A DNA stretch of 64,000 bases from a virus. Its lineage: Duplodnaviria > Caudoviricetes. This document shows, one piece after another, positions 4,860-22,702 of the stretch. Location: positions 11,873 to 75,872 of the IMG/VR virus record IMGVR_UViG_3300016371_000007; one strand, given 5' to 3'. Both the position numbers and the translations under genes were made by a program. Position 1 is the stretch's first letter. Every line of letters begins with the position of its first letter. Below the pieces are notes generated by a model. It made no database searches, was not told the DNA's origin, and worked only from the letters and a program-made list of their open reading frames with translations.

Positions 4860-6114
4860 GCTAGTCCGAGCAGCGGCAGCCGAGTCACTAAACAAGCTCA
4901 CCCGAGCCGAGCTATTACGGCACTTCTTAATCTCCCGAGTCGGGGATATCACGGGGATGGACACCATCGGCGTCCCGATCTTTACTGCGATCAGGGCATT
5001 GTCCAAGACCATTGCGATCCACGCCGGGAAAGGCATGAATCCCAGACTGAGCCGAGCGGGAGCGATTGCGGAGGCTATCGAATTCGAGGCCGCTGAACAT
5101 CCACATGGCAAAGCCGTCGTTGCCCAGGCGATCCAGATTCCAGCAGAAGAGCGCCTGGACATCATAGACTGTTTTCCAGCCCGCTCCAGCGTAGTGAGTG
5201 ATTTCACGCCGTTGGCCTGGGAAGAAGCCACCAACATTCAGAATGGCTCAGTCAAGCTCATCCCTTCGGATCTCATCTGGATGGTCAACCGAATCGAGCA
5301 GCAGCCCTTGCTCTACTTGCAGACTGGATCTAATGGCCTAGCCACCGGAGGCACCCTGGAAGACGCTATCCTCTCCGGCCTGTACGAGATTCTGGAACGC
5401 GATGCTTGGACCCTGCACCAGTTCTTGGTCGATAACTATGGCTACATTTCCCAGCGCATCCCGCTGGTATCACTGCCGGAACCAATCGAGGGGCTGGTGC
5501 GCAAGATCGAGGCTACGGGGTCGAGGCTGCATCTATTTGACTGCACCAATGACTACCGAATCCCGGTTATCAACGCGACGATCCTGGATCTGAGCGGCAA
5601 TTGTGCCGGGATGTTTGCTGGTTATGGCTGCCATCTTAATGCCGAAGTCGCCGCTATCCGGGCGATCACCGAGGCAATCCAATCCCGAGCAGGCTATATC
5701 TCCGGGGCTAGGGATGACCTATTCCGGCGGCAGTTCTTGCTTATGAAACGCCTGGATCACGGGAAGCTGGATCAGATGTTCAGTGAGTTACCCGTAGGAG
5801 GGCTGTTATCTGAATACCGGACTGTACGCTTCGATACCATCAAAGCTGAGTTGCGCTATCTCTTACGCCTGATCAAAGCCGCCGGGGTCTCAGAGGTCTA
5901 TGTGAGAGAGATCGGGGCCTACGTGGATAACATCTATGTGGTCCGGGTATTCAGCCCTCAATGCGAGCCGTTCAGGTTCGACTTCTGGCAGCCGAGCTTG
6001 CGCTGCCTCTCCTATGCTAAGCGCAAGATGGCCGAGCTGGCCAAGCAAGGTAAGGAGAAAGTCACTGAGCCGGAGGAAGAAGACGAGGAAGGAGAAGAAT
6101 GGAAAAAGTCTTAG
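4840..6114 (+). CDS. ycaO: YcaO-family ATP-dependent peptide-backbone modifying enzyme (TfuA-associated type)
   Basis: Motifs SRVGDITGMD.IGVP, AGKG, EAIE, SNGLATG, YEILERDA, EAIQSR..ISGARDDL; no C-terminal PxP tail. Confidence 0.93.
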   Translation: MYNAERELVRAAAAESLNKLTRAELLRHFLISRVGDITGMDTIGVPIFTAIRALSKTIAIHAGKGMNPRLSRAGAIAEAIEFEAAEHPHGKAVVAQAIQIPAEERLDIIDCFPARSSVVSDFTPLAWEEATNIQNGSVKLIPSDLIWMVNRIEQQPLLYLQTGSNGLATGGTLEDAILSGLYEILERDAWTLHQFLVDNYGYISQRIPLVSLPEPIEGLVRKIEATGSRLHLFDCTNDYRIPVINATILDLSGNCAGMFAGYGCHLNAEVAAIRAITEAIQSRAGYISGARDDLFRRQFLLMKRLDHGKLDQMFSELPVGGLLSEYRTVRFDTIKAELRYLLRLIKAAGVSEVYVREIGAYVDNIYVVRVFSPQCEPFRFDFWQPSLRCLSYAKRKMAELAKQGKEKVTEPEEEDEEGEEWKKS

Positions 6115-7394
6115 TTTACCTGGGGCCAAGCCTTCCGATTGGGATAGCCAAAGAAATTCTCCCCGATGCGGTTTATCGCCCACCGGCCCGACAGGCTGAC
6201 ATCGTCAGTGATCTGGCCAGGGTCAAGCCCACGCACCTCATCCTGATCGACGGCACCTTCAGGGAGAATCTCTCGGTCTGGCATAAGGAGCTAGTGTATG
6301 CCCTCCAGTTCCCTGGAGTCCAGGCCGTCTACGGGGCTGCCAGCATAGGCGCACTCCGGGCCGCCGAGCTGGATTACCTGGGCATGATCGGCCTGGGTAA
6401 GATCTACGAATGGTACCGGGATGGAGTGACCGAGGACGATGCCGAGGTGGCTGTTAGCTATGCCGAGCACAAAGGCCAGTATCATCTTAACAGTGTGCCG
6501 CTAGCCGATATCCGGGCTGGAGTCGAGGAGCGCGGCGACGATGCCTATTGGTTCCTGGATCGGATGCGTAGCGTGCCATATGCCGAACGCACTCACGATC
6601 TATGCGAGCGAGAATGGCAAGTAGAAGCGCTCCAGCCGAACTATCCTTGTCGGCCCCAGAAACAATTGGACGCCGAGCTGGCTCTCCGGGAGTTCCGGGA
6701 TCATAAGCCGGAGCCGGTCCATAAGCCACAACCCGATGACCTCTCAATGACTTTCGGCGCTCTCTATGAACGGGACCGGCGCATCAATATCAAGGGCGTC
6801 CCTATCCCGCAGCAACACCTGGATGCCTTCGTCCTATTACATAACCCGGAATGGGAAAGGATAACCTGGGATGCTAGCAACCAGGAGCTGGCATTAATGC
6901 TCTGCAATTTATTGCACGTTATGGTCAGCCTGGAAGAGATCGGACGGGAAAGCGCCCGGTTCCAGCAGCGGGCCGGGATCACCACCCAGGAAGAGTTCCA
7001 CAGCTTCCTAGAGAACAACGGCTGGAACACCCACGAGTTCGACCGGCTGATGATCCGCAATGCCAGGATCCGCAAGCTCCAGCATCACCTAACGGTTTCC
7101 AAAGTCTTCAAGCGTAACACCCAGTCGGTCCTGGATTACTTGCGCACCCACCAGGGATTTGATTTCTGGGCCATCCAGGCGGCCCAGCAAGAGGCGCGAC
7201 TGGATAATGATGAATGGCTCTCCATCGACCTGGAGACTCCCGTGCTCCAGCGGCTCAAGGAGCACCTGGAGAAAGAAGGGATGGAATTCAATATGACCCC
7301 TGAAGAGTACCTCCTGGAAACCGGCTTTAGCAATTTGAATGAGCTGTCCGTAGCTCTCCAACGCACGGCAGCTGGAAAGGAACACAATGTCTAG
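6099..7394 (+). CDS. tfuA: TfuA-like protein (long form)
   Basis: Motifs VYLGPSL, YRPPA..D, LIDG.F....VWHKE, GAASIGALRAAEL..GM.G.G.IY.WYR.G..EDD.EVAV, SVPL..IR; overlaps the ycaO stop. Confidence 0.93.
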   Translation: MEKVLVYLGPSLPIGIAKEILPDAVYRPPARQADIVSDLARVKPTHLILIDGTFRENLSVWHKELVYALQFPGVQAVYGAASIGALRAAELDYLGMIGLGKIYEWYRDGVTEDDAEVAVSYAEHKGQYHLNSVPLADIRAGVEERGDDAYWFLDRMRSVPYAERTHDLCEREWQVEALQPNYPCRPQKQLDAELALREFRDHKPEPVHKPQPDDLSMTFGALYERDRRINIKGVPIPQQHLDAFVLLHNPEWERITWDASNQELALMLCNLLHVMVSLEEIGRESARFQQRAGITTQEEFHSFLENNGWNTHEFDRLMIRNARIRKLQHHLTVSKVFKRNTQSVLDYLRTHQGFDFWAIQAAQQEARLDNDEWLSIDLETPVLQRLKEHLEKEGMEFNMTPEEYLLETGFSNLNELSVALQRTAAGKEHNV

Positions 7395-9876
7395 CGGTGT
7401 AGGTGGCAGTCAACTCACTGGGAATTCCGGTCAACTCACTACCATCCCTAACCCTGGCGCTGGCAGTACTATTGGCTCGAACGGCCAAGTTTTCTTGTCT
7501 GATGGGTCGCCTTTTCTCTTTAATGGACAACAAGTATTTGCAGGCGCGAATGGGACATTCACGACGACGGCTCCTAGCAGCACATCCGCTGCGACGACTC
7601 AAAGTCAGGGGATGCAGCCGAACTTCCAGGTAAGTAACGCCTACGTTGGTAATCCACTCTATTCCCCCTCGCAGACTGGTGCCGCGTTAATGGGCCAGCA
7701 GATGATGGTTAATCCCAATCCATCACAGCAACCGATCTCTAGCCAAAGCGGCATCTATTCTGGCCCGCAAACCCCGACGCTCTCGAGCGGGGTCCCGGCT
7801 ATACCACAAGGGCCATGGAGCCATGTGCCCGGACTGATAGGAGGCATGGCTCCCCAAGGCCAAGTAGGTCCTGCCTCGCTTGCCGCCAATCCTCAAAACG
7901 TCTGGAATGTTCCTAAGCCTAGCACCACCACCATCACGCCGACCGCACCTTATGGCGGCGTCTCCAGTGCCACTTCTTCTCCCAGCCCCTTTGCTACTCC
8001 ACCAGCAGCGCCATCCATCAATTACTCGTCCACAGGACTACCGCCGCCAACAGCTCCGACACCAAATATGCAGCCGCAATCACGGGCATTGGGTCTCACG
8101 CCATTGAATGCAGCCAGTAATTATGTCACTAACGCGACCACCCCAGGAACCAGCGCCGGATTCCTTGCCTTAGGAGCGGCGACCAAACACATGGCCGCCG
8201 GTGGCCGGGTGAGACGAGATCAGCAAAACCAACCGCCCCCGCCCATACAGGTTGGACCGCAGCCAGGGCCGATCAATATGCCAGCTGCCGGACCACCGCC
8301 GAATATCCCGGTGGGAACGCCGATTAACCCTGCCGCTTTTGCACCTGGAGGGCAGTACGGAGCACCGCTAGCACCGGGCATGGCCCCTCCCCCTGTCGCA
8401 CCTCCGGTTAATAATCCCAACTTCCAGATGCCGCCTGGGTTCGCGCCAGGACAAAACTTACTGGGAGCGCTTCCTGGAGGTAATGTGCCACCGCCGAACC
8501 CCATGGGACCGGGACCCCAATTCATGGGTCAGCTGCCAGGAGGGATGATAGGACCCCAAGCCACTCCAGGAATCAAGCTGCGGCAATCCGGCGGCCCGAT
8601 CCAGAAGGACGATGACGAGACTTACTTCGGAGGTCAACCCTCGCCAGCAGCTAGCCCAACCCCGACTCCGAAAACTAGCCCAACTCCCAAACCGACTCCG
8701 GTCCCGCCTGCGAAATGGCAAACCACCATCGCGGGCCAGCCGGTAGAAGATCAGCCATACCAGCAGAAGGCAGCCGGTGGCAAGGTTGACACTGACACAG
8801 TGCCTGCCATGCTCACCCCCGGCGAATATGTAATCAATAAAGATGCAGCTGAGAACATCGGTAAAGAGAAGCTGGATGAACTTAACCAGAAAGGTAAGTC
8901 CAAGAAGTTAGGTGATGGGCTGTACCCTCAACACCTACAAGCTGGCGGGGACGTTCAAGATTTAGACAACTTGTCTACCAACTATGCGATGAATCAGTTC
9001 AACGCCGCACAGCAGACCATGCTGCAAGCTATGCTGCGTCAGAACCCGCAAACCCAATACAGCCAAAATGCACCTTCGAGTTCCAGTAATCCGTTATTTC
9101 AGCGGTTCCTTACGCTGAAGCAGCAATTCGTCGCTAATCGTCTAGGCACTCAGTACGGTCCAGGGCAACAAGCGGCAGCTCAGAAAAAAGCTCAATCTTC
9201 TGTCCCTCAGACAATTGGAGCACAGACGACAGCCACCCAGCGTCCATCGACTCCACAGCAAGGGACTCCACAGCAAGGTTTCCCAGGCGTTGGCGGCAAT
9301 ATGTATGGCGGCGGCGGCGGCGGGATGCCGCCCGGAACGCTTCCCGGCCAGGGAACTTACCTGCCAGCGGCCCAGCAAACACCAAACTATCCCGGCAATA
9401 TGACTCAATGGCTGGCCCAGTTTGGCCATACTCCACAGGGACAAACATGGCTGGCCAACAATCAGAATAATCCCGCTGCACAGGCTTATATAAGATCGCT
9501 CTCAAGTGCTACTGGGCCGGGGAGCCCTTTGTACGGGAACCCGCAAGGCATGCAGGTAGGACCAGCTAATCCAGGGATCGCTAGCCCAACTGCAACGGCG
9601 CAGACCGCTGGTGATTATGCGGCAGGAGCTGCGAATCCGGCAAGCGGAACAATGAATTTAGGCCAAGCACCAGCGGCTCCAAACTTTAATGTAGCAGCCA
9701 CCATTGCAGGCGCAGGCCAGAATGTCGCCCAAGCCTGGAGCAATTACGGGAAATCGGTCGGCAGCTGGAATCCGATCCCAGCCGGAAGCTGGGCAAACGC
9801 AATGTATTACGAAAACCCGGAGATAGCTCATTACTATCAGTATATGCAGCCCTTCCAGGAGTATCAGATCGTTTAA
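7387..9876 (+). CDS. Internal virion/ejection protein, Pro/Gly/Gln-rich
   Basis: Low complexity; DTVPAMLTPGEYVINKDAA..IG...L..LN motif typical of phage virion proteins; four xxxGGx(V/I) motifs. Confidence 0.7.
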   Translation: MSSGVGGSQLTGNSGQLTTIPNPGAGSTIGSNGQVFLSDGSPFLFNGQQVFAGANGTFTTTAPSSTSAATTQSQGMQPNFQVSNAYVGNPLYSPSQTGAALMGQQMMVNPNPSQQPISSQSGIYSGPQTPTLSSGVPAIPQGPWSHVPGLIGGMAPQGQVGPASLAANPQNVWNVPKPSTTTITPTAPYGGVSSATSSPSPFATPPAAPSINYSSTGLPPPTAPTPNMQPQSRALGLTPLNAASNYVTNATTPGTSAGFLALGAATKHMAAGGRVRRDQQNQPPPPIQVGPQPGPINMPAAGPPPNIPVGTPINPAAFAPGGQYGAPLAPGMAPPPVAPPVNNPNFQMPPGFAPGQNLLGALPGGNVPPPNPMGPGPQFMGQLPGGMIGPQATPGIKLRQSGGPIQKDDDETYFGGQPSPAASPTPTPKTSPTPKPTPVPPAKWQTTIAGQPVEDQPYQQKAAGGKVDTDTVPAMLTPGEYVINKDAAENIGKEKLDELNQKGKSKKLGDGLYPQHLQAGGDVQDLDNLSTNYAMNQFNAAQQTMLQAMLRQNPQTQYSQNAPSSSSNPLFQRFLTLKQQFVANRLGTQYGPGQQAAAQKKAQSSVPQTIGAQTTATQRPSTPQQGTPQQGFPGVGGNMYGGGGGGMPPGTLPGQGTYLPAAQQTPNYPGNMTQWLAQFGHTPQGQTWLANNQNNPAAQAYIRSLSSATGPGSPLYGNPQGMQVGPANPGIASPTATAQTAGDYAAGAANPASGTMNLGQAPAAPNFNVAATIAGAGQNVAQAWSNYGKSVGSWNPIPAGSWANAMYYENPEIAHYYQYMQPFQEYQIV

Positions 9877-9890
9877 GAGAAAGGTAATTT

Positions 9891-12527
9891 ATGGCAGGCG
9901 GTGTAGGTGATACTAGCAGTGTACCTGAGCATGGCCCGATCCAGGCGCAATACTGGCCGCAGACACATGTTACCCAGCTTGGCCCGATCAACAGACTGGA
10001 GCCGGTTAACTGGATGGATAGCTTGGGCCTAGCGGCCCGCGAGGCTGGCAAGCAGCTGATGACGAGCATGGCAAATCCCGCCGTCAGAGAGGCGGCTCGT
10101 GCGGAGGCGATGCGTGCTCAAGCCGAGCAAAAACTCGCGCAATACTACCGGGATAATCCCATGATGCTTCGCCGGTACGGTTCAATGGGAAGCGGCGGCC
10201 TTACCACCCTAGCGAAAGCTCAATCCGGTGTCCTTGGTTACGTGGGTGACACGGATATCATGCCGACTCAGACGAATGACGCCCCGGCAGCCCCGAGTCA
10301 GACTGGAGGAGACGGAAGCGCAGAGGCCGAAAAGACCACTAAGGCATTGAAACCGGGACCAAGGCCCGGAACGGAAGAGACCCCAGCAGATGGCGACCAG
10401 AGTGACCAGAACAAGGATACCAGCAAGCCATTTGGAAGCACTACGAATTTTGGCGGCGTTTCCAATGTGCCAGCTGCACCTCAGACCATGGATGATCTGG
10501 ACAGCCGGATCCGGGTGGCTGTGGCGGATGTGATGAACAATCCCACGGCCTATCTCAATCCGGGTGGGGCGGCTCAGTATCCGAGCCAGCCTTGGTATGG
10601 AAGCCAGGGAGGACAGGTACCACAGAGACTGGCTGATGGCGGCCAAGTGCAGCAAGCACCACAGCAGGACCAAGATAATCAGAACTTTCAGCCATCACCT
10701 TTTGTGTCCCCCGCACTCCAACAAGCAGCCGGTGGCGATCCGCAAAAAGAGCTGGCACTCCTCCGGCAATGGCAAGGCACCCAGCAGGCTAATTTGCACC
10801 CCGTCATTCCGGCTAGCGCTGTTAAAGCGGCACTGAAAGAAGGAGTACACACCGGAGTCACGGATGTGGTTTACAATCAGGGCGCTGGCCCAGGCGCACA
10901 GCCTAGTTACACCGTATACACCAAGAACCCACAAGGACAGGGGACTACTGCGCAGACTCTGCCGCTCACCCAGGTAGCGAAATTCTTCCCGCATCTGGCT
11001 TCGGGCAGCAATATGAGTCTGGCCATGAGCGGGGCAGATATGCAACAAGGGACGCCACCGGGCATGGGAACTCCTCCGGCACCCGTTGCGCCGACAGGAG
11101 GTGCCGGAGCTGCACCAGGAGCTACAGCCGGGTTTAACGCGGGCGCTCCTTCTGCCCCAGGTGCTTTAACAGGCGGGATTCAAGGAGCTGGCCAGAATCC
11201 GAATGACGTGGTTAATCAACAGATTCACCAGATGGTGGCCGACAGGATCCTGCATCCCGAAAATCTCCTGGTTGATAACACACCAGCCGGGAACCCGAAT
11301 AATGCGACCACTAACACCTCTAATGTAGTTAAAACCAACCCAAGCAATTTCCTCGACAGCTGGCGATCTAAGGATTCAACCACTGATCCCAATCCGCCGC
11401 CGATAATGAATCCGCAAGGGATTGCAGACGTGCAGCGGCAGAATGCAGCTCACCAGAAAGAAGGCTGGGATAAGGCCCAGGACGCAAATGACGGAAGTGG
11501 GGTCAATAAGATTGCAGCGGTACAATATGACGGAGCTGGAGGGCAACATTTCTGGTTCCACGATACCCGTTCTAACATCAGCAGCGTGCCATTCCTGGTC
11601 TATAGCGATACCGGGTATAGCCAGATCAGGATGCCGCTCGATGGCCAGGGCCACACTATGGAGGTGATGCTGCCGGACTGGCAGATCAAAGAGAATCTTT
11701 CAAAGATGGGGATCAATCCTGAGGGCTGGTCACACAATCAGATGGTGGCCGCAGTCCAACAAGAGATCTATAACAACACCCACGGCGATTTCCCTCTGGC
11801 TACCCGGAATAAACTCGAGACCGAGTTAAATCAAACCCTCCAATCTCAGCGAGGTATTGATGCCATCACCGAACTGAACAAGCATAACCAGCCTGGAGAT
11901 CCAGCCGGAAGTGGCTGGAGTATCATCCAGCGGGCTCGAGCGTACATCGATCAGAACTCGAATCTGATGGCTGGCTGGCCCCAAGCCCAACAATGGGTGA
12001 CAGCCATCCAGCACGCCCTGGGCAATGCCCCTGCGCCTGCGGCATTGGTGGCGCTCCAGGATGCAATGACCCAGTTAACTGATGAAAGTCGGTTGGGTCC
12101 TGAGGAAAAGGAGGGACTACCTCCTCTGAGCTTCGACAATTACCTATTGCCTCGCCTAATCCAGTATAACCATACGATGGCGGCACGTCTTAGTCGGCAG
12201 ATCTCAAGCTCTCTCAATAACAACGAAAAGATCGATGCTTCCTATCTGAAGGTAGGCAGAGGATTACGTGAGAATGGACGTGTCCCCGACACGGGACTTA
12301 GCATGGAAGCTCTCGATAAAATAACCCGGTCCAAACCGGGGACAGCTATGCCGAGCCCAACTGCGAGCCCCACTCCAGAACCAGTCTTGCAGGCGCAGCC
12401 TAACGCTACCCCGCTGGATACCCGCAACATGACCCAGGAGGAGATGAATAAGGCGCTTAGGAAACAGCCTTTGGGCAGCAAGTTCATCGACGGTCAAGGT
12501 CTAAAGATCCTCAGAAAATACCCGTAA
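9891..12527 (+). CDS. Internal virion/ejection protein
   Basis: 878-aa ORF coupled to the giant gene by a TAATG overlap; contains RLADGGQV. Confidence 0.65.
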   Translation: MAGGVGDTSSVPEHGPIQAQYWPQTHVTQLGPINRLEPVNWMDSLGLAAREAGKQLMTSMANPAVREAARAEAMRAQAEQKLAQYYRDNPMMLRRYGSMGSGGLTTLAKAQSGVLGYVGDTDIMPTQTNDAPAAPSQTGGDGSAEAEKTTKALKPGPRPGTEETPADGDQSDQNKDTSKPFGSTTNFGGVSNVPAAPQTMDDLDSRIRVAVADVMNNPTAYLNPGGAAQYPSQPWYGSQGGQVPQRLADGGQVQQAPQQDQDNQNFQPSPFVSPALQQAAGGDPQKELALLRQWQGTQQANLHPVIPASAVKAALKEGVHTGVTDVVYNQGAGPGAQPSYTVYTKNPQGQGTTAQTLPLTQVAKFFPHLASGSNMSLAMSGADMQQGTPPGMGTPPAPVAPTGGAGAAPGATAGFNAGAPSAPGALTGGIQGAGQNPNDVVNQQIHQMVADRILHPENLLVDNTPAGNPNNATTNTSNVVKTNPSNFLDSWRSKDSTTDPNPPPIMNPQGIADVQRQNAAHQKEGWDKAQDANDGSGVNKIAAVQYDGAGGQHFWFHDTRSNISSVPFLVYSDTGYSQIRMPLDGQGHTMEVMLPDWQIKENLSKMGINPEGWSHNQMVAAVQQEIYNNTHGDFPLATRNKLETELNQTLQSQRGIDAITELNKHNQPGDPAGSGWSIIQRARAYIDQNSNLMAGWPQAQQWVTAIQHALGNAPAPAALVALQDAMTQLTDESRLGPEEKEGLPPLSFDNYLLPRLIQYNHTMAARLSRQISSSLNNNEKIDASYLKVGRGLRENGRVPDTGLSMEALDKITRSKPGTAMPSPTASPTPEPVLQAQPNATPLDTRNMTQEEMNKALRKQPLGSKFIDGQGLKILRKYP

Positions 12528-15500
12528 TGGATCGGCCATTCCAGACTGGCGGCCCGGTGGCCAAGGATCCGCCCCCAGCTCCGACCCCGGACCTCGACCA
12601 ACATTGGATGGATATGGCGAGAGTGGCTGGCTGGCCGGAAAATGAAATTCAGATAGCTACTCAGCGAGGACTTTTGAAAAGCCCAGATTTCCAGCAAGAA
12701 GTACTAAGGCATTACAACTGGAAACAGCTCCACGAAATGACTCCATCGCCTGGAATGATGGAGCATGCACCAGCACCGCCGCCAGCACCAGTACCGACTG
12801 CAACTCCAACACCGAGTGATGATGAATCTTCTGGCATTGTAATGATGTCAGACACTGGGACCGGAAAGACGATGATATCGAATGAGGACGATATTAATCG
12901 TGGAGCGATTGAGCAGACGAAAGGTTATGGCAATCCTTCCTTGAAAGAGTCAATCCACAGCGGCAAAGGCGGCTGGCTCCCGGAGGCAATCCGGCACCCG
13001 GAACGCTACGGCTACGCGGAAGGCGGCCCAGTCAATGCGCCCGCAACTGCTTCCGGGGAATACGCTGGCTCCGATACTCCGCAGCCAGCTTCTACTCCCA
13101 CTACTCCGTCTCCCCAGACAATCCAGGCTGCCCAGCAGACTCCGGCCCAGCCGGTAGCTCAGCCCACTCCGACCCAGCCGATAGCGTCAGCCGATGTAGG
13201 CGAGATAGTTCCACAGAATCAGCAGAATGCTCCGGTCGCAGCCCCGGATGTGGGCTCAAACGAAGAAGAGACCGTCAATGACATCGTCAAAGAGTACGGG
13301 ACTAAGGCCCACATCAACGAAGGCTATTCCCATGGCCAGCTGACTAAGCCCATAGCCGTAGCCGCCATGGCAAAGATCGACGCCAACTATCAGGCAGCCG
13401 ATGACGCGACAAAAAAGGCCATGGCGCAAGCCGAGCATGATGCCGAGACAGGGCAGAACAGTAAAGCGCCTGTCGCGGGCAGTGATATCGGAGAGAAGGT
13501 AATACCAGACACGGTGCCGGTGATCTCCCAGGAAAGTGGTGGGCAACGCTTTGGCCAAACCATGGCCCAGGAGTTCCTGGGGCAGCAGACACCAATAGGA
13601 GACGCTGCCCGCGCTTACCTGCAAGAGCAGCATACTCCTGATGAGATCCAGGCGGCCATGGGCAAGTTCCAGGAGGCCCAAAATCTCCTCTTACGCCAGT
13701 ACAGAATTTCAGATCCTAAGACTCAGATCGATCTCCAGCGCCAAATCAGATCCCTTCTAACTGATCTCGTACCGGACTACATGGCGCTCCGATCTGGACA
13801 AGCTGGGTGGGAAGCTGAATACGGCGGCCAGAAGATCCTCAAAAATATAGGGGCCGTGGGAACCGACATGTTTGGCTCCGGCAAGGTTAAGCCATTTGAT
13901 CCCAACGGCGATCAGGTCAGTGCTTTCGAGCGCACTCCAGAGCAAGATGCTAACCGGCTGGATGCAGGAAAGAAAGCCTATGACGACTACATAGCTTCGA
14001 CCACGATTGTCCCTAAGAACGTGGCCGAGGAGCGCCAGCTGGCTGTCCTCCAAAAGCATGGGATGGCACCCAGCCCGGAAGCTATCGCGGGGGCACCGGA
14101 ATGGGCTACGGATGCAGGTCTAGCCTTAGTCGGCTCAGGCCTAGTTCCTGTCTTGGGCATTAACGAATTGGCATTAGAGGGAGTGCCAGAGCTAGAAGCC
14201 GCAGGCATGACTGCACGCGGCACCACCTTGCAAGCTGCCGTCAAAGGTGCGGTCTCGCGAACCGGCGGTGCGTTCAGCCGTGCTGGCGAATGGGCGCAAC
14301 CTGTGGGGGCGAAATTGGCCGGTAAGAGCTTCGGCAAGCTTCTGGCGCGAACCGCCGTGGGAGGCACTCTTGGCACTGGCTGGTACATATTTGATCCCTT
14401 CACCACCAATAAGCTGGCTCTGCTTGATCCATCCAACCCGAAGCATTGGCAAGCACTCATGGAGTATGCGCGAGACGCAGGCATCCCGAGCCTAATCGGC
14501 GGCGTGGGTGGCCTCACCCTGAACCGGGTAGGCTGGGCTAGCAGAATACTTGGCGACACCATGCGTGCGGCTGATGAACAGGCTTTCGTGCCATCGATTC
14601 AGGGCCAGTCAATCCGCACGGGGGCATCGTTCATGCCCCGTGAAGGTATCATGGGAGACATCTTCGGCCCGGAACGGACTGGTCCGGTAAATATCCCTTT
14701 CATGGAAGCAGCGCCACGGGGGATCATTCGCACACCGGCCATACAACTTGGTGGGCGCACACTCCGAAGCGCTATCGAGGCCGCCACTTCTGGCGTCCCT
14801 TATTCAGCTCTCACCTCCAAGGATACCGATCAATTCTTACAGAACGTAGAAAACTTCGGTTACCTGGGAGCCATCGTCCACGCTCCAGTCAACTTCTGGA
14901 ACGCGATCAAAGGCACATTCTTTAACCCTGCCTTTGTAGGCAGAGGCCAGGATCCGAACCGGCCACCGCCCTGGGGTCTGAGTAGCTATGGCGATAGGTA
15001 CGACAACGTCTCGCGGATGGAGTTCGACCGCATGGATAAGAGCCGTCAGAACGCCTTCCTCTATCAACAGGGCTTCGGAGACGCTAACGGGATTAAGACC
15101 CATCTTCTGCCTCCCGAGGTGGTAACTGAGGTTGCCAGGAACCTGGGCCAGGAGACTACACCCAGAGGCTTTACGATTCACAACCCGATCAGCGGGGAGA
15201 CGCATACCTTCATTTCCAGCGAGCATTACGATCCGGCAAGCGGCCATGAGTTTGGCCACAACATCCTGGATACGATGCATCCTACGGATCAGGCCCGGAT
15301 GATGTTCCTGGCTAGCCGGATCCCGGATAGCGAGATGAATGACTTCGTTACCCGGTATGCGAACGAGGCGGATCCAAGTGTTGGTCCGATTACTTTTAGC
15401 CAATTGCCAACCGAGTCAGAGATCAAGCCGGGTAGTCCCGATTACGATAAGGAGAAAGCCGACTTCGCCGCCAGGACCGGCAACCTGACTCAGGAACAGG

Positions 15501-18500
15501 CAAAGCGAGAACTCGCTGCCGATACCATCGGCCAATGGTTTGGCGGCCAGACGGCAGAGAAATGGCTCTCAAAGAACCCAGCTTTGATGCGTGAAGCTTC
15601 GATGCTGATTGGTAGTGGCCTGGAGGGCATGGGGATCCGCTCCACGACTGCCGATATTAATGGCCCGGTCGGTGCGCCGAAGTACATGCTCTTCGGCAAG
15701 ACCATCAACAAATACGTCAAGGGCTGGGTCCGAGGCCTCTACTCTGGAGCAAACCCGATCCTCAAGCTGCCGGGGGGATTAGAGAAAGAGTTTCAGGCCC
15801 AGGAGGCAGAAGCCCGCGAAGGTAGACAGCCGCTGCCGGAACCCACCGAGGAGCAAATCGCGAAACGGGCTTACGGGATTAGCCAGAAACGACCAGCGGG
15901 CGGGGCGCAGACTGCTGAAGAGGCTAGAGAGGATTGGTTACAAGCACAGAAAGAGCTGAGAGCACAGATAGCCGCAGCTCCCCGAGTCAGGGTGCGCCAA
16001 CCGCCCGGACCACCGGCAGCTCCATCCGGCCCGCAACCAGGGCCAGGAGTCTTGAAAGGCCTGATTGGAGCCTTTCACCATGCTCACGATTCGAAGGAGG
16101 CGCACGACACCCAATGGGAGCTGAAAAAGAAAGGACTCTCACCAGGAGAAGCCCAGGCAATCAGCGAAGGTAGGACCCCAACTCCAGGCCCAGCAAATCC
16201 TAGTCTGATGCCAGGAGGAAACGCGGGCGTAAAGGCCACACCCGAGGCCGTGGTCAAGCCAGCGATCCCGACCCAGCATCCGGCCCGCGAACGGCGACAG
16301 AACGAAGCCAAGGTCGCCAAAGGCAATGAGCCCCAAGATTATACCAGCAAGGTCACTAACCATAAGCTGATCGGCGTGACCGGCAGCGAGTTTGGTGAGG
16401 TCGATAATCCCAAGCGGGGCGGTTATACCGAGCCAGGGTGGAACATTGGAGCCTGGGGCGACCGGCTGGACGGGGAGAATAACCACGGGTTTGCGCTGCC
16501 GCCATCCATCCTGCGGCATCTTGGTTGGACCGGCCAGCACAACTACGGTCAGCTCTTTAACTCCCAGTACACAATCAGGGTTCACAACCCCAGGACTGGA
16601 GCCACTACTGAGGGACCACTCAAAGATATCGGTCCAGGCGCAAAGACCGGCGCACTGATCGATATGCTCTGGGGGTCCCGGCATGACCTGGGCTATGGCA
16701 CCAATTTCAAGGGCGGCGTTAATTTTGAGATCGTCGATAAGAAGGGCAATGTCGTCTACGCGCCGACCGGCCATGAAGTAGAGGAGGGTGGTGGCGGCGG
16801 CGGCGGCGGGGGCGGTGGACGAACAGGCGTGGTGCAGGCCGGTGGCGGGGCAGGCGGCGTAGGCAGCGCTCCGATAGCACCAGGAGCACCCGGCACCCCA
16901 GAATTCGAGGCCCAGCAACGACCAACCGTAATCCCCGGCACTCAGATGCCGGAACCGGAACAACCGGCTGCGAGACCTGCCGCCTATACGGAAGGGCCAT
17001 CCTGGACTCCAGCGCCAGAACAAAGCGGCATGATGCCCATGGGGGGGTACATGGGTCCTGGCGCACAGATGACCCCTTATGGGTTCATGCCACCACCGGC
17101 AGCGCCAAGTGGTCAGGTTTCCATGATGCCTGCGCGTGGGCCGAAGCAGCTGGGTGGCAAGTACGGAGAGACTGAGGAAGAGCCCAGCACAGCCAATAAT
17201 GGGCCGGTGGCTAACGCGGCAGTTGCCCCGCACCTAGCTAAAGGCACTCTGAAAGGCCTTGAAGACGCACAGATAGCTCACGCCGCAGAGCTATCAGACG
17301 ATGATCTCCGGGTCCAGAAACAGCCAGACGGCTTTTTCAAAGGTGAATACTTCCAGCGGGGAGACGCCTTGCATAGCGCTGTACTCAAGAATGTGCCGGA
17401 CAAGGAAAAGGAGGTAATGGCAAAAGCTGAAGAGGCAATTGCTAACCGGCAGCCGCTCAATACCACCTATGCCAGTGCGCCACGCAAAGGCTTGGAAGCA
17501 GAAGCGCCTACAACCCGGAGCCGCCAGATCGAATACGAGATGTCTAGCCCACAGGCGCGGCTCCTCAAGCAGACTACGGCCCAGCTGGCGGGACATACCA
17601 TGATCCCCACCGCCGTGGGCGTGAAACTAGCCGCGAAGAAGGGCGCACCGCATGAAGGCTATGTCCAGGGAATTAGCACCAATGCGGTGGCGAATAACCA
17701 CTGGCATATCAACCAAGCCCTAACCGAAGCCGGACATGCCAGCCCTTATCCCACGCTGGACAAGAAGTTTATGAACGATCTGGAGGGCTACATCTCCAAC
17801 CTGAACGCCGGATACAGAGGCACAGGCACTTCTCTTCAGCCCTCCACTAAAGCTTACCAAGTCAAAGTTGATCCCCGTCATGTGGCTTACCGGATTAAGC
17901 CGGAAGAAGCCGAATACATGAACATGCTGATCAACAATCAGGCGGCCAGAGCTAAGAAAGCGGGACCGCTGCGGGAGCTGGCCCGAGCCGGTGGCACGCT
18001 TTATACCGAAGAAGGCGAGACTAATCCGCTCCGGCTGGCATTAGACATGCGCGAAGCCAAGCTCCGGCATGAGGCGGCGGCGGCAAACCCAGAGAACCCA
18101 GAGCTAAAGAAACGCCTGGAGAAGCGCTGGAGCGAGGACACCCTGGAGCCAACCATTCGTACCTTTAAGGCGGGATTGGTTCACGAGACCCATGGCAGCC
18201 AAGAGGCAATGCCCGAAGCCATACGGCCTGGGGAAGAGTTCAAGGACCTAACCACGGCCATGCAGCGGCATCTGCCACGGGGACGGCCTGATGTGCCAGT
18301 GAGCGTGAACTTCATGCCAGGACGTGGTCACGCCCCAGAGTTTAAATCGGTCAGCCCAGAGGAATTCATTACCCAGCGCAATAAGTCGAAGCGACCTCAG
18401 TATTTGTCCGAACTAAGCCCACACGAGATTCGCGAGCACCAGCTTTATACGAGCCATGACGGCACTTCTGGAGTAGCCATCGATCCGCATGGCGATATCC

Positions 18501-21322
18501 AGAATGTGTTTAACAACGGCGGCCCACAGGGTGCCGGAGCCCATGCCGTTGTCCACGCTATCGCTAATGGAGGACGGACCCTAGATGCCTACGATCCGTA
18601 CTTGCCCGAGTACTACCGGCAATTCGGATTTAACGAGACGGGTCGCATGAAATTCAATCCAACCTATGCAAAACCTGAGTGGGATTTCAAAAAGGATGAT
18701 GAACCTGATGTTGTATTTATGGGCTGGAAAGGTTATCCTAATGGAGATCGTGATGCCGCTATAGCCCGAGCGACCCGGCAAGCCGAGAAGCTTCCCAATG
18801 AGCCATCAGCCCAATACTACCCAGAGACAGACTGGGACCGAGCCAAGGACGAGAGCCGAGCTTACGCCCGAGGAGCTGAAGCTTATCGAATGGGTCGAGA
18901 AGGGCCGGAAGAAGAAGCTTACCGATCAGGAAATCCACCTAGCTTTGGAGCAGGCCCGACATCTAGGCGAGATCTAGCAGAGTCACCGGCACCGGCTTTC
19001 ATGCCGATGGCCGGACGAGCGGCCAAAGGATTTAGAGGTGCGCTAAAGGCAGGCAAACTCTTTGAGACACCGATCCAGGCACGCCCAGGAACTTGGAGCG
19101 AAGCAGATCCAGACCTTGAATTTATTAGGCAAACACTTGGCTTCCCTCCTCCAGAGGGTCGCCCTGGGCCTTGGAGCCAGCAACGATTCGAGATCTCCGA
19201 CCGGGACATGAAGCTGAAGCCTTCCCCGGCAAAATCTCCTTTCCCCAGCTTGTTAGAGCACCAGTCCCACCTGGGCGCTAAGGATCAACGGCTGGGAGAT
19301 GTGCTCGACCATCCAGAACTTTTCAAGAATTACCCGCAGCTAGCCAACACCAAGATTGAACTAGCTCCCAATATAAAGGGCGAGGGCTATTACTCACATC
19401 CCTGGACTGACCCGGATACCGGAGAACATAAGGGCGATAGGCTAGTTCTGAAAGATGCTAGCGACCGCAATACGCTAGCCCATGAAATACAACATGCGGT
19501 CCAGAATATAGAGGGCCATCCTCCTGGGGCTAGCTTTGAGGCGATACACCAAAGCCTTCTCGGATCGCTGCCGATAATAAATGAGGTAGGCAAGGAGGCC
19601 ATGGCTGAGTACCCGGACATGAGCCGGGAAGCCTTTATCCGCAATACGGGAGGCGGTAGCATTGGGCTTTCAAAGAAGGATCTGGATCAGCAATACACTG
19701 ATTACCAGGATACCATGAGCATCCACCGCAGGGATTGGATACTCCGGCGTATGCGGGACATAGCCTTCGCGCTCTACCAGCGAACCCCCGGCGAGATGGA
19801 AGCCCGCGCTGCTGGGTATCGTGCTGCCACACCGGAATCAAAACGGTCTCCGGCAAGACAACTGGAATGGGAGAAGGAAGCTACCAATCTGCACTATCCT
19901 ATCCCGCCGGAACTGGAACGTAGCGGTACGGTCCCACCTTGGGCGCAAATCTCCTTCATGGCCGCCAGGAAAAAGAAAGGCGAGCCGGAGCCACCGCGTG
20001 AACTATCGGAAGCCACTAAGGCCAAGCTGGGGCCGGTGCCGACAGATCCGCATCAGGCTATGATCTATCAACGGGTCGGTGAACGCCTGGACACCCAGAT
20101 CCCAGGAGCTATCCCGCTGGAACCTGCCTACACAGCGGAAGGCAAGTTCCGCTGGGACGCCACAAAGAAAGCGCCGGTTTATAAGACCACCCGCTATGAC
20201 ATCGCCAATGCCCCTATGCTCCAGCAACAAGGCAAAGCCATGGGTACGGTCACGGATTCCAAGGGCAAGGTCGGTCCAGCTAAAGCACCGCCAGAAACCA
20301 GGGATGAACTGGAAAGCCTGGACCCGGAAAAGCGCCTGACACCTTTCTTGAACCCGACCGACCGGAAGCGCGTAGTTCACCTCAATAAGATTAGCGCCGT
20401 CAACGCCTACGCCGACAAGCTCTACGACTTCTACAAGTCAATCGAACATCTGCCTGAGGTCATGGGTGGCAAAGAATGGTACGACGAAGCCAAGGGCCTA
20501 CTGGATAAGAACTTCGGTTCCCATGCTAGTCTCATGGCCAATCTCCTGGGGGCAACCAGCGCCGGGAACAAGGTCAAGATCAACTACAACATGGCCATCA
20601 ATGCCTATCACAACTTCCTCATGGGCAGGTATGACCGGGCCATTGATCTTTACCGGCAGGCCTACGGCATCAAGCAGAGCGGCAAAGGGAACCTCATCAA
20701 GCACATCATCGAGAACAAGATCCATGAGAAGCTGAAAGACAAAGAGGGCAATCCAGAGGAAGCACCGGACAGCGACGAGGCCGCCATGGATCAGTGGATC
20801 AGGCATCACGATATAACCCCGCGCAATGAGTACGGGAAACTCTTCGGCCACAACTCAATCGCTGTCCTGAAAGTCCTGGCTCATACCTGGGAGAAAGAAG
20901 CCGGTGGTCCCAAGACCCCGAACTTCGCCGCTAATCTCGATGGCCGCTCGATTCAAGCCACGATAGACATGTGGGCCGCCCGGACCATGCGACGGCTGGG
21001 CTACGAAGGTTACACCGACAAACCCTGGCTCATCCAGCCTGCTGGTGAGACCGGAGTCAGCGATGTGGACTTCGGCCTCTCACAGCTCGCCTTCCGCAAG
21101 GCCGCCGAACGGATCGGGATCAAGCCCTCCTCGCTCCAGGCCATCCTCTGGTTTGCCGAACAGAAGCATTGGCAGGCCAACAAATGGGAGCGTGCACAGG
21201 ACGCTGAAGACCGTGATTACCGGCCTATGCTCAAGGCCTACAAACACCCAGAAGGAGTGCCGCACCGCTCCACCAAGAAATGGCTGGGAGAGAAAGAAGA
21301 AGCACCGGCAGCACCGGGCTAA
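12527..21322 (+). CDS. Giant (2931 aa) polyvalent internal virion protein
   Basis: Segments recognised: HEFGH (15245), DUF2934-like (15841-15960), RlpA/DPBB-like (about 16370-16750), GNAT-like (about 18340-18735), LPD23-type HEIQH...GEMEAR (about 19170-19830), HhH-GPD-like (about 20400-21180). Confidence 0.85.
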   Translation: MDRPFQTGGPVAKDPPPAPTPDLDQHWMDMARVAGWPENEIQIATQRGLLKSPDFQQEVLRHYNWKQLHEMTPSPGMMEHAPAPPPAPVPTATPTPSDDESSGIVMMSDTGTGKTMISNEDDINRGAIEQTKGYGNPSLKESIHSGKGGWLPEAIRHPERYGYAEGGPVNAPATASGEYAGSDTPQPASTPTTPSPQTIQAAQQTPAQPVAQPTPTQPIASADVGEIVPQNQQNAPVAAPDVGSNEEETVNDIVKEYGTKAHINEGYSHGQLTKPIAVAAMAKIDANYQAADDATKKAMAQAEHDAETGQNSKAPVAGSDIGEKVIPDTVPVISQESGGQRFGQTMAQEFLGQQTPIGDAARAYLQEQHTPDEIQAAMGKFQEAQNLLLRQYRISDPKTQIDLQRQIRSLLTDLVPDYMALRSGQAGWEAEYGGQKILKNIGAVGTDMFGSGKVKPFDPNGDQVSAFERTPEQDANRLDAGKKAYDDYIASTTIVPKNVAEERQLAVLQKHGMAPSPEAIAGAPEWATDAGLALVGSGLVPVLGINELALEGVPELEAAGMTARGTTLQAAVKGAVSRTGGAFSRAGEWAQPVGAKLAGKSFGKLLARTAVGGTLGTGWYIFDPFTTNKLALLDPSNPKHWQALMEYARDAGIPSLIGGVGGLTLNRVGWASRILGDTMRAADEQAFVPSIQGQSIRTGASFMPREGIMGDIFGPERTGPVNIPFMEAAPRGIIRTPAIQLGGRTLRSAIEAATSGVPYSALTSKDTDQFLQNVENFGYLGAIVHAPVNFWNAIKGTFFNPAFVGRGQDPNRPPPWGLSSYGDRYDNVSRMEFDRMDKSRQNAFLYQQGFGDANGIKTHLLPPEVVTEVARNLGQETTPRGFTIHNPISGETHTFISSEHYDPASGHEFGHNILDTMHPTDQARMMFLASRIPDSEMNDFVTRYANEADPSVGPITFSQLPTESEIKPGSPDYDKEKADFAARTGNLTQEQAKRELAADTIGQWFGGQTAEKWLSKNPALMREASMLIGSGLEGMGIRSTTADINGPVGAPKYMLFGKTINKYVKGWVRGLYSGANPILKLPGGLEKEFQAQEAEAREGRQPLPEPTEEQIAKRAYGISQKRPAGGAQTAEEAREDWLQAQKELRAQIAAAPRVRVRQPPGPPAAPSGPQPGPGVLKGLIGAFHHAHDSKEAHDTQWELKKKGLSPGEAQAISEGRTPTPGPANPSLMPGGNAGVKATPEAVVKPAIPTQHPARERRQNEAKVAKGNEPQDYTSKVTNHKLIGVTGSEFGEVDNPKRGGYTEPGWNIGAWGDRLDGENNHGFALPPSILRHLGWTGQHNYGQLFNSQYTIRVHNPRTGATTEGPLKDIGPGAKTGALIDMLWGSRHDLGYGTNFKGGVNFEIVDKKGNVVYAPTGHEVEEGGGGGGGGGGGRTGVVQAGGGAGGVGSAPIAPGAPGTPEFEAQQRPTVIPGTQMPEPEQPAARPAAYTEGPSWTPAPEQSGMMPMGGYMGPGAQMTPYGFMPPPAAPSGQVSMMPARGPKQLGGKYGETEEEPSTANNGPVANAAVAPHLAKGTLKGLEDAQIAHAAELSDDDLRVQKQPDGFFKGEYFQRGDALHSAVLKNVPDKEKEVMAKAEEAIANRQPLNTTYASAPRKGLEAEAPTTRSRQIEYEMSSPQARLLKQTTAQLAGHTMIPTAVGVKLAAKKGAPHEGYVQGISTNAVANNHWHINQALTEAGHASPYPTLDKKFMNDLEGYISNLNAGYRGTGTSLQPSTKAYQVKVDPRHVAYRIKPEEAEYMNMLINNQAARAKKAGPLRELARAGGTLYTEEGETNPLRLALDMREAKLRHEAAAANPENPELKKRLEKRWSEDTLEPTIRTFKAGLVHETHGSQEAMPEAIRPGEEFKDLTTAMQRHLPRGRPDVPVSVNFMPGRGHAPEFKSVSPEEFITQRNKSKRPQYLSELSPHEIREHQLYTSHDGTSGVAIDPHGDIQNVFNNGGPQGAGAHAVVHAIANGGRTLDAYDPYLPEYYRQFGFNETGRMKFNPTYAKPEWDFKKDDEPDVVFMGWKGYPNGDRDAAIARATRQAEKLPNEPSAQYYPETDWDRAKDESRAYARGAEAYRMGREGPEEEAYRSGNPPSFGAGPTSRRDLAESPAPAFMPMAGRAAKGFRGALKAGKLFETPIQARPGTWSEADPDLEFIRQTLGFPPPEGRPGPWSQQRFEISDRDMKLKPSPAKSPFPSLLEHQSHLGAKDQRLGDVLDHPELFKNYPQLANTKIELAPNIKGEGYYSHPWTDPDTGEHKGDRLVLKDASDRNTLAHEIQHAVQNIEGHPPGASFEAIHQSLLGSLPIINEVGKEAMAEYPDMSREAFIRNTGGGSIGLSKKDLDQQYTDYQDTMSIHRRDWILRRMRDIAFALYQRTPGEMEARAAGYRAATPESKRSPARQLEWEKEATNLHYPIPPELERSGTVPPWAQISFMAARKKKGEPEPPRELSEATKAKLGPVPTDPHQAMIYQRVGERLDTQIPGAIPLEPAYTAEGKFRWDATKKAPVYKTTRYDIANAPMLQQQGKAMGTVTDSKGKVGPAKAPPETRDELESLDPEKRLTPFLNPTDRKRVVHLNKISAVNAYADKLYDFYKSIEHLPEVMGGKEWYDEAKGLLDKNFGSHASLMANLLGATSAGNKVKINYNMAINAYHNFLMGRYDRAIDLYRQAYGIKQSGKGNLIKHIIENKIHEKLKDKEGNPEEAPDSDEAAMDQWIRHHDITPRNEYGKLFGHNSIAVLKVLAHTWEKEAGGPKTPNFAANLDGRSIQATIDMWAARTMRRLGYEGYTDKPWLIQPAGETGVSDVDFGLSQLAFRKAAERIGIKPSSLQAILWFAEQKHWQANKWERAQDAEDRDYRPMLKAYKHPEGVPHRSTKKWLGEKEEAPAAPG

Positions 21323-21347
21323 ACGTTGCGCATCTTCCGTTACGGAA
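21321..21347 (+). promoter_or_regulatory. Repeated operator-like site A (AAACGTTGCGCAT-C-TTCCGTTACGGAA)
   Basis: Same 27-mer as at 59796-59822 except for the spacer base. Confidence 0.65.
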
Positions 21348-21348
21348 C

Positions 21349-21392
21349 AAAAAAGTGCCGCCGGAGGCTCAACTAAGAAGACCCCCGGCGGC
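21349..21392 (-). terminator. Probable intrinsic terminator between convergent genes
   Basis: GCCGCCGG (21357-21364) pairs with CCGGCGGC (21385-21392); followed by a T6 tract on the minus strand. Confidence 0.55.
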
Positions 21393-21418
21393 TTCGTATG
21401 CAAGCCAAGCCACTGGCT

Positions 21419-21757
21419 TTACGAAATTCTTCGAGCTGGCATGAAGCGCACGCTCATCGGATCGATCTGTGGCACCGGCCCACTCATCCGCATATGCTTC
21501 TCGGCCACGAATTGACCGTTGGCCACATTCATCGTCTCAACCACCTCAAGCTTTACCTGGGGATTGCGCATGGCATAGCCGACCCAATCGTTCACTTGGT
21601 TAATCTGCCGTGGAGCTGGCGGCTGATAAGGTTGTGGCGGCACATAGACATTCACATTGGTTCGTTTCTCGTTATTCGGGTTAATCGCACCCCAGATACC
21701 ACCAATGATGACGAACAGGATAAACAGCCCGAAGATCACAATGCTCAAAAAGTGCAT
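21419..21757 (-). CDS. Small membrane protein
   Basis: N-terminal hydrophobic helix (HFLSIVIFGLFILFVIIGGIWG); coupled to the upstream ORF. Confidence 0.6.
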   Translation of the reverse strand: MHFLSIVIFGLFILFVIIGGIWGAINPNNEKRTNVNVYVPPQPYQPPAPRQINQVNDWVGYAMRNPQVKLEVVETMNVANGQFVAEKHMRMSGPVPQIDPMSVRFMPARRIS

Positions 21758-22239
21758 TATTTCTCCTCCTCTTCCGGGGCTGCTTGTGCCGGGTAGGGTT
21801 GAGTGACACCTTGTGGGCCTGAAGGCGCTGGCGGTGGCGTAGGCGAAGTCTGCTGGCCTTGAGCCTGGGTCGCCATCTGCTGCTGCTGGGCCGCCGTCTG
21901 CTGTGCTAAAGTCGCCTGCTGTTTCTGGAGTGCCGCTTCAGCTTCAGTCGGGCCTAACCCAGGACCTGCCCCGCCAGTCTGGGCCTGCTTCATCTTGCCG
22001 TACAACCGTTCGTGAGAGAACTCTTTCTCGTAGTCGGTGGCATCGTGTTCAGCCTGATGCCGCTTGTCATGTAGCGCCTGAACCCGCTGATCGAACTCGT
22101 CCATATGCGGCCCCATCATCTGGCCCAGCTGCACGAGCATCGCCTTCTGCCGGTCAGTCAGGTTCGCACCGGCAACATCATCTGAGCCAGGAGGAGGTCC
22201 AGCATCAGGAGCGGCCTGTGGCTCTTGGTTATCTTGCAT
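21757..22239 (-). CDS. Hypothetical Gln/Pro-rich coiled-coil protein
   Basis: 160-aa ORF in a coupled minus-strand block. Confidence 0.6.
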   Translation of the reverse strand: MQDNQEPQAAPDAGPPPGSDDVAGANLTDRQKAMLVQLGQMMGPHMDEFDQRVQALHDKRHQAEHDATDYEKEFSHERLYGKMKQAQTGGAGPGLGPTEAEAALQKQQATLAQQTAAQQQQMATQAQGQQTSPTPPPAPSGPQGVTQPYPAQAAPEEEEK

Positions 22240-22283
22240 ATGTTAATATCGTATGAAATCCGATAAAGTCAAATTCACCTCCT

Positions 22284-22457
22284 TCAGTGCATCTTCTTCA
22301 AGGTTTTCGCAAGCCTCGCCCGCTGGCCGAGTTTGCCGCCAGCTTTGGCCGCTTTGTCCAACTTCTTAGCGGGGATCTTTTTTCCTGCTGGCACCCCCAT
22401 CTCTTTGTGCAATGCGCCAGGGTGCTTAATCGCACCCGCAATCCACTTTTTAGCCAT
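22284..22457 (-). CDS. Small basic phage protein (57 aa, MAKKWIAGAIKHPGALHKEMGVPAGKKIPAKKLDKAAKAGGKLGQRARLAKTLKKMH)
   Basis: Not in the ORF track; translated by hand. TAATG overlap with the upstream gene. Resembles a small Lys-rich phage family (KWI..AIK.PGAL...LG...GK.IP...RARLA.TL). Confidence 0.8.
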   Translation of the reverse strand: MAKKWIAGAIKHPGALHKEMGVPAGKKIPAKKLDKAAKAGGKLGQRARLAKTLKKMH

Positions 22458-22702
22458 TAGGGTATCATTCCTTGTGCGCCGGTACCGCCCATGCCACCCA
22501 GGCCGCCCCCGAAGGTGGGCACCTTACCCCGGCTCTTTGATTTGGATTTGCTCTTCGATTTGGCCGCTTTACGAGCCGGAGGTTTCGGTGCGGCTCTGCG
22601 GGCCGCCGGTGCCGGTGGTGGAGGAGCCATTATGGGGATCCCGCCGCCGCCCTGCCGTTTGACAGCCCCACCTTTTTTGTACGCTGCTTTCTTCGTTGCC
22701 AT
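22457..22702 (-). CDS. Small basic, histone-like Lys/Pro-rich protein
   Basis: MATKKAAYKKGGAV...KAAKSKSKSKSKSRGK; coupled on both sides. Confidence 0.7.
   Translation of the reverse strand: MATKKAAYKKGGAVKRQGGGGIPIMAPPPPAPAARRAAPKPPARKAAKSKSKSKSKSRGKVPTFGGGLGGMGGTGAQGMIP

Follow-up and report, generated by a model that had tools for sequence, protein, structure and literature searches.

A di-glycine motif in putative virion proteins of an uncultured phage is probably the flank of a module carried by tape measure and ejection proteins

We analyzed a stretch of 64,000 nucleotides (hereafter the window), comprising bases 11873-75872 of the 75,872-bp uncultured phage record IMGVR_UViG_3300016371_000007. 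A sequence-only reading of this DNA had noticed that four of its proteins, of 829, 878, 2931 and 81 residues, share the short motif x-x-x-G-G-x-[V/I], and had proposed that the motif serves as an address tag for capsid packaging, as a signal for proteolytic maturation or as a recognition element for the enzyme pair YcaO-TfuA. Our results indicate, with a probability of roughly 0.7, that the motif is the Gly-Gly flank of a widespread unnamed module of tail-channel proteins that leave the virion ahead of the DNA, the carriers being the tape measure proteins of sipho- and myoviruses and the internal or ejection proteins of podovirus-like phages. One complete copy of this module is present in the 829-residue protein. 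The remaining instances in the window appear to be orphan flanks, found in the 81-residue protein and, within the 829-, 878- and 2931-residue proteins, in disordered linkers rich in Pro, Gly and Gln. The earlier interpretation stands insofar as a genuine short motif is shared and marks putative tail-exiting virion proteins, but this motif is special neither to this phage nor to YcaO-TfuA.

A tape-measure-type module and its distribution

The module occupies about 74 residues of the 829-residue protein (residues 460-533; 8764..8985, plus strand) and reads KAAGGKV - DTDTVPAMLTPGEYVINKDAAENIGKEKLDELN - loop - LQAGGDV, such that two of the heptapeptides noticed earlier are its two flanks. Across copies of roughly 70-75 residues the consensus begins with [F/Y/M/K/R]-[A/Q]-x-G-G-x-[V/I]-(P-G-x-G)-x-D-T-V-P-A-M-L-T-P-G-E-[F/Y]-V-[I/V], in which P-G-x-G is often present after the upstream flank, and continues with -x-[K/R]-x-[A/S]-[A/V]-x-x-[I/L]-G-x-x-x-L-x-x-[L/M]-N-(loop)-[Y/F/M]-[A/N/Q]-x-G-G-x-V. 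The core in the window is D-T-V-P-A-M-L-T-P-G-E-Y-V-I. The 829-residue protein thus contains the general core pattern D-x-[V/I]-P-A-x-L-x-x-G-E-x-[V/I] together with the helix pattern x-[A/S]-A-x-x-[I/L]-G-x-x-x-L-x-x-[L/M]-N, with reciprocal matches, and carries an h-x-x-G-G-x-[V/I] flank on both sides. PHROG tape-measure families match residues 465-552 of this protein, and a word-indexed search with residues 440-829 returned 37 proteins, most of which share just the module (about 45-70 residues); several of the 37 are TP901-type (PF10145) tape measure proteins with two copies.

We scanned 84 window proteins with an independent hidden Markov model (HMM) of the module, built from 250 copies of unrelated proteins. 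The segment at residues 460-533 of the 829-residue protein was matched with an E-value of 2.3e-19 (61 bits), the only significant match in the window, and the four named proteins ranked first. For the 878-, 2931- and 81-residue proteins, only the flank part of the model aligns (E = 0.2, 1 and 0.56, respectively), and an HMM search for a decayed core beside their motif copies found none. Because only the flank part aligns, these copies are classified as orphan flanks rather than modules. That the full module is confined to the 829-residue protein also agrees with the earlier description of the four proteins as otherwise unrelated. Pfam gave no match for the 829-, 878- and 2931-residue proteins, nor did NCBIfam for the 829- and 878-residue proteins; the PF10145/TIGR01760 PhageMin_Tail core was likewise not found in these Pfam and NCBIfam scans, and neither database holds a model for the module. 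The identification withstood two checks: flank and core are associated in tape measure proteins, as described below, and the 829-residue segment matches a profile built without relatives of this phage.

A second profile (A2), made from eight module copies of this clade, was scored against 1.84 billion representatives of 50% identity clusters and detected 16,488 protein clusters at E<=1e-3, 4,490 at E<=1e-10 and 781 at E<=1e-30. The top 150 proteins are 2,000-7,800 residues long and contain 3-10 module copies each. All of the top matches that were scanned (4/4) proved to be PF10145/TIGR01760 (TP901-type) tape measure proteins, and the PF10145 core is present in P0007, P0074, P0079, P0080 and P0170. 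Among the 635 module copies of the top 150 proteins, GGx[V/I-like] occurs at most 25 residues upstream in 89% and downstream in 89%, with the consensus F-A-[S/T]-G-G-x-[V/I]-P-G upstream and [Y/F]-[A/N/S]-x-G-G-x-V downstream. In the same proteins 264 orphan flanks lie over 60 residues away from the nearest core, versus about 22 expected; because of this approximately 12-fold enrichment, orphan flanks can be regarded as a general feature of tape measure proteins.

Among cultured phages, tblastn with the whole 829- and 878-residue proteins gave no match, and only a 71-residue module query succeeded, recovering 523 phage records at the permissive threshold of E<=1. Nearly all of the informatively annotated entries among the 40 matches listed fall under tape measure protein genes, including those of Nodularia, Vibrio PG28, Mic1 (Microcystis), Gordonia and Mycobacterium phages. 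Proteins of T4-like cyanophages carry the module as well; in S-SCSM1 the carrier is a 950-residue 'lysozyme' virion protein in the gp29 position, beside baseplate hub genes. Mycobacteriophage Douge has two copies in its tape measure protein gp16 (PDB 8zdo), and lambda gpH contains a full module at residues 726-800, with the flanks HFATGGFT and GYATGGYV around the core EPAGIVHRGEFVFTKEATSRIGVGNLYRLMRG (26 bits with the independent HMM). Searching the PDB with the sequence of a single module gave no match, and a profile search found the Douge and lambda tape measure proteins, in whose entries the module is unmodelled. ESM Atlas returned unnamed viral clusters only, together with a weak lead to a crAss cargo protein (0.81), and literature text searches for the core or flank peptides, or for an earlier description of the motif, produced nothing usable. 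On a further contig (L020) a 744-residue protein (L020:4886-7120) has the module core from about residue 6 and is encoded just upstream of the portal gene; this contig encodes a P22-type portal and an SU10-type capsid protein, and the 17 kb of it that were read showed no YcaO.

Two known systems are closest to the window proteins. Lambda gpH, in which the module lies in the N-terminal part of the gpHC fragment, resembles the 829-residue protein in having the full module with both flanks and is ejected ahead of the DNA, but its core is diverged and lacks D-T-V-P-A-M-L, and the protein is a ruler within the tail tube with a coiled-coil body. The TP901 family (PF10145/TIGR01760; Douge gp16, Nodularia, Vibrio PG28 and Mic1) has the same module and flanks, in 2-10 copies, as well as orphan flanks, whereas the window proteins are without the PF10145 core, hold a single module and belong to a YcaO-TfuA operon with a 2931-residue giant protein.

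Flank copies in the window and in related phages

All eight heptapeptides of the sequence-only reading were found at, or within a few bases of, the places it had assigned to them. In addition to the module flanks KAAGGKV (8767-8787) and LQAGGDV (8935-8955), the 829-residue protein contains MAAGGRV (8191-8211), a putative orphan flank in the context TKHMAAGGRV, and the weak match RQSGGPI (8581-8601). Putative orphan flanks are also present in the 878-residue protein (LADGGQV, 10629-10649, neighbored by the weaker GSQGGQV, 10599-10619) and in the 2931-residue protein (FQTGGPV at the N-terminus, 12539-12559, and YAEGGPV in the context YGYAEGGPV, 13013-13033). These sites are on the plus strand; YKKGGAV (22661-22681) is on the minus strand, in an N-terminal extension of the 81-residue protein. 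Five matches to the loose pattern had not been cited: ALPGGNV, QLPGGMI, GSQGGQV, NTGGGSI and RQGGGGI.

To weigh these sites against chance, we compared them with shuffled sequences and with a weight matrix trained solely on 1,236 module flanks from 150 unrelated proteins. As written, the loose pattern is weak evidence, being only marginally enriched: the four proteins contain 13 matches to xxxGGx[V/I], where shuffles that preserve local composition and the places of GG predict 8.1 (28 of 500 reach 13), and 11 versus 7.7 once the module region is taken out (77 of 500 shuffles reach 11). Global shuffles gave an expectation of 4.35, and none of 500 reached 13. GGx[V/I] is not enriched genome-wide (20 of 150 isolated GG versus 14.8 expected) and is enriched in the 829-residue protein only (6 of 12 isolated GG versus 0.84 expected). 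Sharpened to [F/Y/M/L]-[A/Q]-x-G-G-x-[V/I], the motif clearly departs from chance. When the 177 GG sites of the window proteome were ranked by the matrix, the best nine all fell within the four named proteins, and seven of the eight cited sites were among the top eight. The highest score in the window belongs to YAEGGPV (9.75), and MAAGGRV (9.3), LADGGQV (5.6), FQTGGPV (4.7), KAAGGKV and LQAGGDV (4.0 each) and YKKGGAV (3.2) follow among the cited sites; RQSGGPI ranks 11th (1.7), and ALPGGNV and QLPGGMI also score low. Eight sites reach at least 3 bits versus 1.0 expected (0/500 shuffles), and six do so with the module region taken out, versus about 1.0 (0/500 shuffles). In its sharpened form the shared motif is thus real, whereas as a loose pattern it is only marginally enriched.

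The motif-bearing genes were then compared with those of related phages. In the window, a rightward operon encodes in order a Gly/Gln-rich 537-residue protein (3246-4859), YcaO (4840-6114, plus strand; PF02624, E = 3e-56), TfuA (6099-7394, plus strand; PF07812, E = 5e-29), the 829-residue Pro/Gly/Gln-rich putative virion protein directly after tfuA (7387..9876, plus strand), the 878-residue putative virion protein (9891..12527, plus strand) and the 2931-residue giant putative virion protein (12527..21322, plus strand); ycaO and tfuA are treated here only as context for the motif. A minus-strand cassette follows, within which the Lys-rich 81-residue protein is encoded (22457..22702, minus strand). 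Alignment of TfuA identified eight related IMG/VR loci, where a query with the single 878-residue protein had found none, and these share the order YcaO, TfuA, 829-like, 878-like and giant protein. The module with both flanks is kept in 7 of 9 orthologues of the 829-residue protein, and LQAGGDV aligns with HMQxGGxV of the orthologues. Flanks of the 829-like proteins of this clade (L003-L010) follow the variant [H/K]-M-[Q/A/R]-x-G-G-x-V, with a Met anchor, as compared with [F/Y]-A-x-G-G-x-V in tape measure proteins. In L005 the module instead lies at the N-terminus of the giant protein (L005:15648-15857), the position of FQTGGPV in the window, and the 829-like protein of that locus has no core. 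Comparison of these loci suggests that the module moves between neighboring ejection genes.

Orphan flanks likewise appear to be gained, lost and relocated among the ejection genes of related phages. The 829-residue protein has a private Pro/Gly-rich insertion of about 170 residues (residues ~270-440, 8195-8710) that is absent from nine orthologues and holds MAAGGRV, ALPGGNV, QLPGGMI and RQSGGPI. The insertion opens with TKHMAAGGRV, which resembles the IKHMAGGGSV upstream flank of the orthologues and looks like a duplicate of the upstream flank; RQSGGPI is probably compositional. Only some relatives have flank copies in their 878-like and giant proteins, and never at strictly aligned positions: copies resembling LADGGQV are found in the same region of the 878-like orthologues of L005, L007 and L008 and are missing from those of L003 and L006. 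The 81-residue protein is a real conserved gene with orthologues in five relatives (L014-L018), which share only its C-terminal Gly-rich tail, PTLGGGLMGLGGTG..GMIP, and YKKGGAV is absent from all five. Taken over the relatives, 19 of 327 GG sites in ejection genes score at least 3 bits, as against 2 of 171 in upstream genes.

Several features of this stretch stand apart from the motif. Uninterrupted poly-Gly runs occur in virion proteins, with a G11 run in the 2931-residue protein (residues 1421-1433, 16787-16825), and a G7 run is present in the 537-residue protein (residues 18-24, 3297-3317). An autotransporter beta-domain protein (PF03797, E = 3e-34) is phage-encoded at 34693-35805, directly after collagen-repeat tail-fibre genes.

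Alternative explanations for the flank

Matches outside the one module might be no more than the yield of Gly-rich, low-complexity sequence. The marginal enrichment of the loose pattern and the near-expected genome-wide count of GGx[V/I] are what this explanation predicts, and it also accommodates the low scores of RQSGGPI, ALPGGNV and QLPGGMI, the absence of YKKGGAV from 5/5 orthologues and the lack of positional conservation in the 878- and 2931-residue proteins. Against it, the matrix still recovers six sites where about one is expected after the module region is taken out, the top nine of 177 GG sites are confined to the four proteins, and the same enrichment recurs in relatives and for the orphan flanks of tape measure proteins. 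Chance is largely refuted for the set as a whole, for which we consider it highly improbable, and stays plausible for RQSGGPI and YKKGGAV taken singly. A second explanation treats the flank as a substrate signal, which the enzyme pair of this clade would recognize and at which it would thioamidate one glycine. This is suggested by the position of ycaO-tfuA directly upstream of the module-bearing gene, in this phage as in the related loci retrieved, by the invariance of the GG pairs and by the clade's own flank variant, [H/K]-M-[Q/A]-x-G-G-x-V. The McrA thioglycine installed by archaeal YcaO-TfuA offers a parallel, with a glycine backbone as target and the enzyme pair present in this phage, but no common sequence context is known, and the motif here is plentiful in genomes without the enzymes. 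Thousands of tape measure proteins have the module with its flanks, and six-frame translations of S-SCSM1, Vibrio PG28, Nodularia kac65v162, lambda and T5 gave no match to YcaO (0/5), as against matches in this phage and two relatives. Four of the five YcaO-negative phages bear the full module, and T5 has a flank-like site only. Because module-bearing cultured phages are without YcaO, the motif does not track YcaO-TfuA. Gene order is the sole tie between the enzymes and the motif, and all relatives were found through TfuA, so that the clade itself provides no contrast between loci with and without the pair. The proposed YcaO-TfuA link is therefore unsupported, the motif does not appear to be specific to the enzymes of this phage, and we regard a substrate signal as very unlikely. 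If it did exist, thioamidation of the flank Gly-Gly would be a backbone modification on an ancient tape-measure motif, for example one that stiffens it or protects it from periplasmic proteases. Packaging fares no better. An address tag for the procapsid would be compatible with the confinement of the motif in this window to putative internal or ejected proteins and with the podovirus-like contig in which a module-bearing protein is encoded beside the portal gene. Most carriers, however, are tape measure proteins. These become part of tails without any involvement of heads, as is established for lambda (PMC12617516). We judge a capsid-packaging tag to be extremely unlikely.

Proteolysis was considered in two forms, as an established type of di-glycine signal and as a boundary for tail maturation. 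Di-glycine sequences are cut by proteases of adenovirus, (M/I/L)-X-G-G↓X, and of African swine fever virus (pS273R, G-G↓X), and they terminate double-glycine bacteriocin leaders. The window motif shares with these a hydrophobic residue ahead of the GG pair, but its anchor lies three rather than two residues before the first Gly, a V/I two positions after GG is conserved, the sites are mostly internal and repeated, and scans of part of the proteome revealed no C5, C63 or C39 peptidase. None of the eight cited sites has M/I/L two residues before GG; only ALPGGNV and QLPGGMI do, both in low-complexity sequence. For a leader of 15-30 residues, most sites are internal, and FQTGGPV (residues 5-11) and YKKGGAV (residues 8-14) are too near the N-terminus. 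More generally, the flank could mark a cut made during tail maturation by a host or phage protease or by self-cleavage, freeing module-bearing fragments. In lambda, cleavage of gpH to gpH* is placed in a Gly-rich stretch adjoining the module (PMC12617516). This stretch (705-722) ends just before the module (726-800), and a cut just before ATGG (after residue 733, in the HFATGG flank) would yield a fragment of ~12-12.5 kDa and a gpH* of ~80 kDa. Cuts inside the Gly-rich run 705-722 would yield fragments of 13.8-14.6 kDa, so that the 14 kDa estimate for lambda fits the upstream Gly run at least equally well. T5 pb2 is cut after R1127 (PMC10038345), and the sequence VPR↓AEGGMM places this cut two residues before the only positive-scoring GG among the five of pb2 (4.5 bits). 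The site thus resembles the window flanks in that a flank-like A-E-G-G-M-M directly follows a mapped cut in a tape measure protein (PMC10038345), but T5 lacks a full module, the pb2 cut does not follow GG, and the likeness, 4.5 bits over 10 positions, is a lead only. According to PMC1796659, tape measure proteins are commonly processed. Yet proteins with 4-10 modules have two flanks for each, and cutting all of them would shred the ruler; moreover, no protease was seen in Pfam and PHROG scans of the proteins scanned here, head and upstream genes included. The T5 and lambda positions are equally explained by proteases that cut an exposed linker ahead of a structured unit, and a cut before the module may reflect no more than this. 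Overall, a processing boundary appears unlikely. We also observed that MGEHGTEVVTP, which follows the cut in T5 pb2 (residues 1110-1150, L024), resembles the G-E-x-V part of the module core.

Proposed structural role and its meaning for tail proteins

We favor the interpretation that the flank contributes to structural assembly and that this role is realized in the oligomeric or ejected state. AlphaFold2 monomer models of the module, made for the window copy and the compact copy of L007 with 31-row alignments, were of low confidence (mean predicted local distance difference test score 57) and contained one helix only, over K-x-A-A-x-x-I-G-x-x-x-L-x-x-L-N. Residues ~690-817 of lambda gpH are unresolved by cryo-electron microscopy (PMC12617516). 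Only residues 1658-1699 of the Douge tape measure protein were resolved by the same method (PMC13033339), and both of its module copies consequently lie outside the model. The module hence looks like an element without an autonomous fold. We suggest that the flank would form a short extended segment, with a Met or aromatic residue as anchor, then a turn at GG and a beta-branched residue, and that this segment may become ordered only in an oligomeric, channel-confined or post-ejection state. Flanks ordered in this manner could zip chains together or dock them, and would then act as a structural assembly motif rather than as a tag read by an enzyme.

Several points weigh against the assignment of the motif to ejected tail-channel proteins and against the role proposed for it. 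The mechanism itself is inferred, and the strictly conserved D, P-A, G-E and G-G would also be in keeping with a site of catalysis or recognition. Taken singly, the orphan copies of the 878-, 2931- and 81-residue proteins are not significant (E = 0.2-1), and their positions are not conserved; some of them may be due to chance. Finally, PHROG and Pfam scans of the head and upstream genes gave no decision on the tail type of this phage, that is, between a tail tube and a podovirus-like tail.

With these reservations, assignment of the motif to the flank of a tape-measure-type module has several consequences. The tempting link between the motif and YcaO-TfuA loses its support. The 829-residue protein gains sequence evidence for kinship with tape measure and ejected proteins, and its neighbors gain weaker evidence in the form of orphan flanks. 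A very abundant module, present in 16,488 clusters at 50% identity and without a Pfam or NCBIfam model, is brought to light, and lambda, where it adjoins the region in which gpH is cleaved, would be a tractable model for the role of the module and its flanks.

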